From a virus, in UHGV virus genome UHGV-0177146: a stretch of DNA of 14,562 bases, one strand, 5' to 3'. Shown here in pieces: positions 370 through 1,900 of the stretch. A model generated the notes under the pieces. It was given only the letters and a program-made list of their open reading frames with translations. It was not told where the DNA came from and ran no database searches. The translations under genes and the position numbers were made by a program. The stretch's first letter is position 1; each line of letters begins with the position of its first letter.

Positions 370-1900
370 TCTATCCAATCCTTATACAATCCCTTTCCTC
401 ACCTTTTCAGAATCTTATCAGACCTTAAAAGCAATAACTCTATAGTCTACTCTATAGCCTTTTATCAAATCAACTTAAATATAAGCCAATAACCCCAGAA
501 AGGGGATGGCCCACTTAAACGCTCTATAAAGCTCTATAACAACCTTATCAACCTAACTTAAGGGATTGCATTAACTCACCTTAAAAAGCTCTTTACAGGG
601 CTTTATAGAGGCTTAAAAGAATCTTATAAGGTTGTGAGCTTTATTATCTCGTTAGTATCTTATTGGTATTGTTACCAATCCCTAGTGAATAGTTAAACAA
701 TCCCCTTGATAGTCACTAAAAAGTATGTTATAGGGGCTATAAAGTTACGTGATAGATAGCTTAAAAGTTACGTAAATGCTAGCCCCCTTAACATCTTCTT
801 AACAAATTCTTAACAAACCCTACATAGTTATGCTTTTAAGACACTTGTTAGCAACTTGTTAAATCTCTGTTAAAACCATGTAAAAGCCTTGTAAGAGCCT
901 TTGACATAGCCTTTAAAGCCCCTGTAAAGCCTTATATAGAGGTGTCTGCATAGTTGGGATGTAATTACTAGGGAGGGACTAAAAAGAGCTTATAAGGAGC
1001 TATAAAGAGCTTTTAAAAGGGCTGTTTAAAAGGTCACTAAGAGGGAGAGGGAACAATAAGACCAGAGATAGTGACCATGTTAATAGCTTGTTAAAAAGAT
1101 TAAATACTTGTTAGGAACTTGTTAATTATCTTAACAAAATAACCCTTTAAAATTAACTTGTTAACTCTTGTTAGTCATCTGTTAATCCTCTGTAAAGACT
1201 ATTCAGCACTTGTTAGGATACTGTTACCATCTTGTTAAAGCTGTTAAGAGTCTGTTAAGTCCTCTGAAGAGATGTTAAGAGGATGTAATAGTTGTTAAGA
1301 GATTGTTAATGATATTTTAAAATTCTGCAAAGGGGATGTTACAGGGATGTTAAGGGCTACCAAGCAGATATACATCATGAGGTAGATTCTACCGAATCAA
1401 CTCTACAGATATTTTTGAGTTCCTTCAAAGACCCTAAAAAATGACTTGATAGCTCTATTTTATAAAAATTTTAAAATTCTGAATAATTACCTAGACAGTC
1501 TTTTAAAAATACAGGCATAAACAGGCTTATAAGATACCTTGTTAGTACCGTGTTAGACCTTGTGAGATAAGGTCTGTAAAGATATTCCTGTTAAGTTTGT
1601 TAAAACAGTCTATATAGAGGCTTAGTAATACCTAGTGAACACCTATAGAGGGTAACATAGCTGACATAGAGATTAAGAGGTGTATAGAAGCTTCTAAGAG
1701 GGTGTAGAGAGATGGTTAAGGTGATTGTATAGGTTGTTAAGAAGGCTTGTTAGAGGGCTTGTTAGAGGGCTATTTAGAAGGGCTATACAGATGGCTATTA
1801 AGACCACTAGATAGATACTAAGATACTATATAGTACTATATAACTATATAGAGAGTAAGATTAAGAAGGTTGTTAAGAAAGGTAGATATTTTATTCACAT
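370..1900. repeat. ORF-free array of short degenerate repeats in helical phase (TGTTA(A/G) core, plus GCTNTATAAAG, ACTATATAG and TAGAG-type subfamilies)
   Basis: No ORF of 60 aa or more on either strand. TGTTA/TGTAA cores at 846, 857, 868, 879, 890, 923 (11-bp steps) and 1159, 1169, 1180, 1191, 1211, 1222, 1233, 1242, 1253, 1273, 1284, 1293, 1304, 1337, 1348 (steps of 9-11 bp or multiples). Tandem GCTCTATAA x2 at 521-540; ACTATATA x3 at 1823-1852. Confidence 0.7.

Follow-up and report, generated by a model that had tools for sequence, protein, structure and literature searches.

A helically phased TGTTA array fills the predicted terminal repeat at the concatemer junction of a Felix O1-like phage

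In phages whose virion DNA ends in an exact direct terminal repeat (DTR), the recognition of the junction between joined genomes, its cutting at two sites and the duplication of the repeat are poorly understood outside T7. The 160-bp terminal repeat of T7 is flanked, as Dunn and Studier reportedly described in 1983, by two arrays of short repeats named SRL and SRR. At lambda cosB (elements R1-R3), SPP1 pacL and pacR, and the hexamers of P1 pac, an oligomeric small terminase is thought to bind the elements and to bend or wrap the DNA, while parC, the partition site of plasmid R1, consists of two sets of five 11-bp iterons to which ParR binds cooperatively. The T7 concatemer junction is described as the cis-acting packaging signal (PMC13236587, citing Chung and Hinkle 1990; PMC3276506), which works together with a pause of the phage RNA polymerase (PMC3276506); for Felix O1 no such polymerase is known (PMC3185647). 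A DTR is already known from Felix O1-like phages (PMC4837284; PMC8303462), with short repeats inferred in PMC3185647. By homology, the 1.5 kb devoid of open reading frames (ORFs) at positions 370-1900 of the virus genome UHGV-0177146 (the window, a stretch of 14,562 nucleotides presented as one strand) is the concatemer junction of such a phage, where genome units would be joined and cut for packaging, and its predicted terminal repeat is filled with phased copies of the word TGTTAA.

Sequence matches assign the source phage to the Felix O1-like myoviruses (Ounavirinae). The region matches 254 phage records by megablast; the 11 records examined among them, and likewise the 11 homology-selected relatives used below, comprise Felixounavirus, Suspvirus and Mooglevirus plus one unclassified phage (pEC-M719-6WT.1). 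Nearly all of the listed matching records carry no annotation across the region, and three independent annotations, those of UAB_69, Pr103Blw and HP1, put a DTR inside it. Pr103Blw has identical 581-bp repeats at both ends of its record (PhageTerm) and Mooglevirus HP1 has identical 570-bp end repeats (also PhageTerm-annotated), both of which align to exactly 782-1361; the feature named 'DTR' in UAB_69 aligns to 780-1363, and several further phage records start or stop exactly at the boundary positions. Bal31 digestion and run-off sequencing gave experimental proof of a DTR of 608 bp in UAB_Phi87, a close relative, and the terminase of this phage falls in a Felix O1-like DTR group (PMC4837284). 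Placed by homology to the annotated DTRs of relatives, the 580 bp at 782-1361 are a short exact DTR carried at both ends of the virion DNA. The window holds this repeat in single copy because it crosses the concatemer junction; right-end flank, DTR and left-end flank follow one another in it without interruption, collinear with the junctions rebuilt from the ends of Pr103Blw and HP1. Three features that define a DTR phage are found: the sequence stands at both physical ends, judged by homology to the end copies of Pr103Blw and HP1; its boundaries are fixed, sequence-specific and common to relatives (Felixounavirus, Suspvirus, Mooglevirus and the unclassified phage, plus the record ends of Kolesnikvirus); and one copy lies between right-end and left-end sequence. 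The large-terminase gene is located outside the window.

A preliminary description, made from the letters of the region, had missed its identity as a Felix O1-like genome terminus. Its account of a gene-free tract between convergent terminators proved accurate, as no ORF of at least 40 aa is present on either strand between 304 and 1986 and terminator-like hairpins occur at 345-361 on the plus strand and at 1977-1951 on the minus strand. Both are annotated as terminators in phages Moogle and Michonne, and they seal the junction off from the converging gene blocks.

The word TGTTA[AG] occurs in 370-1900 26 times on the plus strand and four times in reverse, against 11 times in the remaining 13 kb of the window; 1000 dinucleotide shuffles give an expectation of 1.78 +/- 1.31 copies for the region, with a maximum of 8. 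The 5-mer autocorrelation peaks at lag 11 (57 observed vs 2.9 +/- 2.4 expected, z = 22.9), with harmonics at lags 20-22, 31 and 43, and no such peak is present in coding controls; the periodicity noted in the preliminary description is real. In the output of Tandem Repeats Finder the region appears as 17 short arrays, with periods between 8 and 13. Within the DTR lie 26 same-strand TGT(T/A)A cores, 20 of them TGTTA with the surrounding consensus (A)ACTTGTTAA(G)(A), so that multiple copies of a short conserved element stand beside the cut sites, as in known recognition arrays, with cores directly at both boundaries. Counted per DTR, such same-strand cores number about 20-26. The individual cores had been located correctly (846, 857 and 868 read TGTTA[AG], whereas 879, 890 and 923 read TGTAA), as had the series running from 1159 to 1348, which advances in steps of 9-11, 20 or 33 bp. 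The other unit types that had been listed are present as well: CTNTAWAR occurs 17 times inside and 10 times outside the region, CTATATAG three times inside and never outside, and TAAGAG seven times inside and five times outside. Being contiguous and 8-13 bp long, the units are distinct from the 24-48-bp repeats with unique spacers of CRISPR arrays, a resemblance that had already been set aside.

Local spacing and long-range phase differ slightly. The local step between cores is 11 bp with an occasional 9 or 10, and owing to these shorter steps the cores of the whole DTR cohere at 10.40 bp (power 14.8, a value reached by 0 of 2000 random core placements). The "near-exact 11-bp steps" of the preliminary description are therefore true locally and give way to a 10.4-bp period over the DTR as a whole. 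All 31 distinct DTRs compared have their best period at 10.35-10.55, with a resultant length (R) of 0.66-0.82, although they vary in total length between 567 and 658 bp. A 10.4-nt period is also present in the DTR conservation profile, computed from an alignment of 23 relatives (power 10.2, null maximum 10.6). The lengths themselves cluster at about 569, 580, 591, 602, 613, 623, 633 and 658 (best period 11.0, p < 2e-4), and all indels beyond 1-nt events measure 10-11, 19-23 or 48 nt.

Conservation follows the same units. Across the 11 relatives, the five core positions score 0.90-0.95 compared with 0.69-0.85 for the spacers (overall 0.94 against 0.81), and most individual cores are kept in 10-11 of the 11 genomes; this is the pattern expected of protein recognition sites and, together with the phasing, makes the motifs compatible with the cooperative DNA-binding scaffold suggested at the outset. 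Cores of array A (Table 1) are kept in 7-11 of the relatives and the boundary-proximal cores at 1337 and 1348 in all 11; within array B, 1118-1137 is identical in 11 of 11. Non-coding status is borne out by the conservation profile, in which 3-nt periodicity is absent from all three segments of the junction (power 0.1-0.7; the adjacent gene reaches 31.8). Outside its own genus, the same gene retains 44-65% nucleotide identity (48-56% at the amino acid level) while the DTR retains 72-80% and the flanks 0.62-0.77; among close relatives, the gene is slightly more conserved (0.89-0.95) than the DTR (0.83-0.92). These comparisons mark the region as constrained non-coding DNA, with the selective constraint acting on a phased word of 5-7 nt.

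Table 1. Coordinates of the junction features and of the candidate binding protein in the window; the DTR and its ends are placed by homology, and a slash within a sequence marks the predicted genome end.
Feature	Position	Strand	Remarks
Terminator-like hairpin and T-run	345-367 (hairpin 345-361)	+	Ends the rightward gene block (82-aa ORF 56-304)
Left non-coding flank	362-781		C-rich plus strand, CTNTAWAR and CTTAAAAG units; by homology, conserved sequence just inside the right genome end (right-end DTR copy in the virion)
Two 23-bp direct repeats, GCTWWAAAGTTACGT... (family D7)	736-781	+	Abut the left DTR boundary
Left boundary string GCTA/GCCCCCTTAACA	778-793	+	Genome left end predicted to begin at G782 (+/- 2 nt)
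DTR	782-1361		Single copy in the window
Three reverse cores TTAACA	788, 799, 810 (788-815)	-	11-bp step, just inside the left end
Array A	844-933	+	About 8 units of 11 bp, (C)TTGT(T/A)A...
GAGCTNTAAAR block	978-1034	+	Units of 10-13 bp (periods 10, 11, 13); direct repeats D6 and D8, inverted repeat I14
Array B	1078-1130	+	TGTTA cores at 1078, 1089, 1109, 1120
Array C	1159-1309	+	13 TGT(T/A)A cores, steps of 9-11 or 20 bp
Two boundary-proximal cores, GGGATGTTACAGGGATGTTAA	1337 and 1348 (1337-1353)	+	Inverted counterparts of the left-end cores
Right boundary string TGTTAAGGGCTACC/AAGCAGATATACA	1348-1374	+	Genome right end predicted at C1361 (+/- 2 nt)
Right non-coding flank	1362-1950		G-rich plus strand; TAAGAGG, TTGTTAGAGGGC and ACTATATAG units; by homology, conserved sequence just inside the left genome end (left-end DTR copy in the virion)
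Invariant AT-rich 19-mer CTATTTTATAAAAATTTTA, then 14-mer ATTTTAAAATTCTG	1455-1481		Repeats D12 and I10
12-bp tandem units TTGTTAGAGGGC / TTAGAGGGCTAT	1731-1803	+	Period 12, 4.1-4.4 copies
ACTATATAG units	1813-1852		Repeats; 1826-1843 invariant in 23 relatives
Terminator-like hairpin and T-run	1951-1977	-	Ends the leftward gene block (182-aa ORF 1989-2534)
123-aa DUF5681 protein	9441-9809/9812	+	Pfam DUF5681, E = 2e-14

The boundary strings are the most conserved parts of the region. The left 16-mer has no mismatch in nine of the 11 homology-selected relatives and one or two in the other two; the right 27-mer is the longest invariant run of the region, identical in 23 sequences, although the first 18 of its 27 nt served as the IMG/VR search pattern. 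This 18-mer, TGTTAAGGGCTACCAAGC (1348-1365), is free of mismatches in 11 of 11 homology-selected relatives. Read inward from each end, both termini begin (G)CCC-TTAACA-TC...TAACA, and the two boundaries carry inverted copies of GATGTTAAGGG (inverted repeat I9, 785-804 / 1337-1356, 80% complementary). At the place equivalent to the two 23-bp direct repeats, AAAGTTACGTAA occurs twice in both Pr103Blw and HP1. With Felix O1-like phages being frequent members of collections for therapy and biocontrol, it is of practical value that the two boundary strings would let annotators place true genome ends from sequence alone.

An independent test of this arrangement is offered by Erwinia phage phiEa21-4, a Kolesnikvirus that is not among the 254 megablast matches. 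Its syntenic gap, at 16472-17912, contains 17 of the 35 copies of TGTTAA within the 45 kb read, and lags 11 and 12 give its autocorrelation maxima. A triplet of reverse TTAACA cores (17035, 17046 and 17057), the counterpart of the left-end triplet in the window, follows GGTTAGCCAC, and the right boundary reads ...CCACT/AAGCAGATATACA. From these motifs a DTR is predicted at 17028-17466, and Kolesnikvirus records start at 17027-17029 (Roscha1, Prophecy and Hena2) and end at 17465-17468 (M7, SPARTY and the vEam phages); the record of Roscha1 starts with CCACTTTTACA and ends with GGTTAG. The match between boundaries predicted from motifs and the ends of these records therefore indicates conservation of both core word and boundary logic in the Ounavirinae genera compared, namely Felixounavirus, Suspvirus, Mooglevirus and Kolesnikvirus. 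The TGTTAAG cores are common to the junctions of phiEa21-4 and the Felix O1-like phages. In the left flank of phiEa21-4 (16500-16910), a phased (C)TTCTAA unit, present in 14 copies at steps of 10-12 bp, replaces the CTNTAWAR units of the Felix O1-like phages. The right end of Kolesnikvirus M7 and related records lies about 2 nt past the predicted boundary (17468 vs 17466). A scan of IMG/VR for further genera with the 14-mer TAAGCAGATATACA returned chance matches only, with no TGTTA array upstream.

The phased cores of the DTR are probably a protein-binding array through which the terminase recognises the concatemer junction and is directed to cut it. With cores spaced 9-11 bp apart, and hence in phase at about 10.4 bp per turn, a phage protein could coat or wrap one face of the DTR; the most likely such protein would be the small terminase, binding cooperatively, for which the DUF5681 protein is a candidate. 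The resulting nucleoprotein array would flag the junction to the large terminase, which would cut at the two boundary sites bearing GATGTTAAGGG in opposite orientation; since the element is inverted between the two boundaries, an enzyme keeping to one geometry could place its nicks in opposite strands, at a distance of about 580 bp. Each packaged genome would then obtain its own copy of the DTR through strand-displacement synthesis across the repeat, as proposed for T7, and the mirrored, repeat-rich flanks might act as auxiliary pac-like sequences. A more daring version, which is doubtful as it stands, sees in the TGTTAAG array a sequence-encoded ruler, along which a small terminase of the DUF5681 type would polymerise in a 10-11-bp register and so position the opposite nicks at the inverted GATGTTAAGGG elements. 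Were this true, the terminal repeat would be as long as its number of units dictates, a function would be assigned to DUF5681, and the junction would be, to our knowledge, the first defined cis/trans recognition system of a short-DTR myovirus.

The case for the DUF5681 protein comes from genomic context. Remote DUF5681 homologues lie directly upstream of the large-terminase gene in three unrelated contigs, with an overlap of about 20 nt in two of the three, and because this is the canonical position of a small terminase, the DUF5681 family may consist of small terminases. Its conserved counterpart in phiEa21-4 is gp42, and in that phage no recognisable small terminase is found beside the large-terminase gene. 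In an AlphaFold2 model of moderate confidence (pLDDT 72), a helical hairpin comes after an invariant basic N-terminal arm (FKKGQSGNPSGRPKGSRN). As binder of the TGTTA array the protein is a candidate and a lead.

Several observations weigh against this packaging role or limit it. The DTR was located by homology rather than from reads of the UHGV-0177146 phage itself. PhageTerm-based and run-off annotations of the DTR differ by 2 nt at each end (782/1361 in Pr103Blw and HP1 vs 780/1363 in UAB_69), differences that, like those among record ends, might reflect a 2-nt staggered cut or an artefact of method. The symmetry of the boundaries is imperfect, the cut falling 3 nt from the GATGTTAAGGG element at one boundary and 5 nt from it at the second. 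The 31 DTRs share descent and are thus not 31 independent observations, so that they show the phase as preserved and not as having arisen repeatedly; in phiEa21-4 the best long-range period is 11.3-11.7 and not 10.4, and exact 10.4-bp coherence is therefore not universal. The 11-bp steps in DTR length could be plain replication slippage of 11-bp units. As for the candidate binder, its link to the small terminase is a lead drawn from gene neighbourhood, a Ro-like gene and a tRNA cluster separate its gene from the large-terminase gene in the Felix O1-like phages and in phiEa21-4, and neither a PDB fold match for its model nor a PDB sequence match for the protein was found.

Other functions for the array have to be weighed against the same data. 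It might act after injection, in end protection or tethering, in stepwise control of DNA entry (as is thought of the injection stop region of T5) or in the pairing of repeats into concatemers. This is unlikely, even though the repeats stand at both physical ends with the same inward-reading start and the terminal region is no early transcription unit, its sigma-70 promoter scan yielding 9 sites against 8.8 expected and thus no promoter cluster: the cores fill all 580 bp and recur in the non-terminal right flank (eight in 1362-1900), and the invariant strings straddle the cut sites, including sequence outside the mature end, which indicates recognition before cutting. Improbable, too, is a replication origin, as proposed in the preliminary description, in which a phage initiator would use the TGTTAA cores as iterons and the AT-rich block at 1455-1481 as unwinding element, with replication starting at or near the terminal repeat. 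Dense, oriented and phased direct repeats beside a conserved AT-rich block would suit an origin, T7 has secondary origins near its ends, and a dual role in packaging and replication is compatible with the evidence; yet neither Pfam nor NCBIfam identifies an initiator among the neighbouring genes, DnaA boxes are no commoner than chance predicts (37 found, 43.5 expected), no IHF consensus is present, typical iterons measure 17-22 bp compared with units of 11 bp and a core of 5-7 bp here, and an origin does not require a motif that marks both cut sites in inverted orientation.

The short iterons in helical register resemble a partition site, and one had been suggested, but this is a resemblance only: no ParA/ParM or ParB/ParR families occur among the ORFs of the window or in the annotated stretches read of relatives. 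That the phasing merely produces intrinsically curved or unusual DNA, acting without a dedicated sequence-specific protein, is very improbable. Motifs rich in A/T do recur every 10-11 bp; the curvature prediction, an approximate wedge model in our own implementation, nevertheless gives 6.9 degrees per turn in the DTR vs 6.8 in the rest of the window, with local peaks only at about 1435 and 1937 in the right flank, and conservation rests on a specific 5-nt word rather than on A-tract content, so that the earlier suggestion of curved DNA was not upheld. Hardly credible, finally, is the view of the repeats as neutral, satellite-like slippage DNA in a dispensable spacer, or as hiding small genes or RNAs. 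Indels do come in whole units and a few records annotate ORFs of 25-66 aa in the region, but across genera the region outlasts the adjacent gene, cores are more conserved than spacers, the design persists in phiEa21-4 beyond the reach of megablast, 3-nt periodicity is lacking, and Rfam, searched at a permissive threshold, has no match in 370-1900, its two sub-threshold matches falling on the downstream terminator only.

The flanks of the DTR mirror each other. Many units of the left flank are the reverse complement of units of the right flank, the GC skew changes from -0.37 on the left to between +0.42 and +0.50 on the right, and several inverted repeats of 14-22 nt connect the two; of the inverted repeats of the left flank, I6-I8 and I13 lead to the right flank and I3 to the interior of the DTR. 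The left flank contains an invariant 20-mer at 612-631 and, at 515-617, an imperfect palindrome of 47+47 nt (70% complementary) made of CTCTATAAAG-type units. The right flank has a mean column conservation of 0.90, again without 3-nt periodicity. Directly outside the invariant right boundary string, an insertion of about 25 bp at 1378-1400 is specific to the window; conservation in this bin is 0.18, against more than 0.9 on either side. The exact 14-mer ATTTTAAAATTCTG occurs twice, at 1314-1327 within the DTR near its right end and at 1468-1481 in the right flank. The ORFs flanking the junction obtained no function from Pfam, NCBIfam or PHROGs (unknown function in the latter).

Further along the window, 6682-7815 on the minus strand encodes an Ig-domain tail or Hoc-like protein, whose first ~120 residues are paralogous to the adjacent 123-aa ORF at 7812-8183 (minus strand); both match phrog_4463 and phrog_3995. 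The divergent intergenic region at ~9236-9440, with a local curvature peak near 9360, separates this leftward block from the rightward block of DUF5681, Ro-like and tRNA genes and is probably a divergent promoter region. The Ro-like/vWA RNA-binding protein (DUF2828 and DUF7788; PHROG 850, 'RNA-binding protein') is encoded at 9894-11309 on the plus strand, and a cluster of 19 tRNA genes follows directly downstream at 11475-14473 on the same strand. A preprint on phage Bas63 suggests that the Ro-like homologue gp130 counters ppl defence, maybe with tRNA-like RNAs; the protein is too widespread to single out relatives.

In comparison with known systems, the nearest relatives of the DTR are those of the Felix O1-like phages UAB_Phi87 (608 bp) and Pr103Blw (581 bp), which are homologous to 782-1361 (PMC4837284; PMC8303462). 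The published reports of these repeats give length and position only. The searchable literature on Felix O1-like or Erwinia phages contains no description of a phased TGTTAA array filling the repeat, nor any account of core-over-spacer conservation, 11-bp length steps, the inverted boundary element, the conserved flanks or the conservation in Kolesnikvirus. The kind of DTR is thus known, while its architecture seems undescribed. Inverted 'bracket' repeats at the terminal repeats of Twort-like phages, a possible parallel, were not confirmed by literature search and are not used here.

Iteron-type origins share with the junction oriented direct repeats beside an AT-rich block and differ from it in unit size, in having an initiator gene, in host-factor boxes, which are at chance here, and in the tie between motif and cut sites that characterises the junction. 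Like R1 parC, the array is built of 11-bp units in helical register and could carry an unbroken protein scaffold along one face of the helix; unlike parC, it is accompanied by no parM/parR or parA/parB genes, belongs to a virulent phage and lies in a terminal repeat. Lambda cosB and the pac sites of SPP1 and P1 likewise place several copies of a short element near the cut site, but they have 3-7 elements in 100-200 bp and serve cos or headful phages, whereas here an exact-DTR phage carries about 25 copies spread over 580 bp. In mechanism, the nearest analogue would be the T7/T3 junction, which also has a short exact terminal repeat, once per concatemer junction, beside arrays of short imperfect repeats. 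In T7, however, the 7-bp repeats lie outside the terminal repeat with irregular spacing; here the cores fill the repeat, are helically phased and mark both boundaries. The cis elements are easy to read, consisting of one short word in about 25 phased copies, inverted at both cut sites and accompanied by natural variants in whole units, and they are conserved in phages ranging from those of Salmonella and E. coli to those of Erwinia, so that the problem lends itself to direct tests. The region does not represent a new class of element but a cis-acting packaging region of unusual clarity and testability, which comes with a candidate trans-acting factor.

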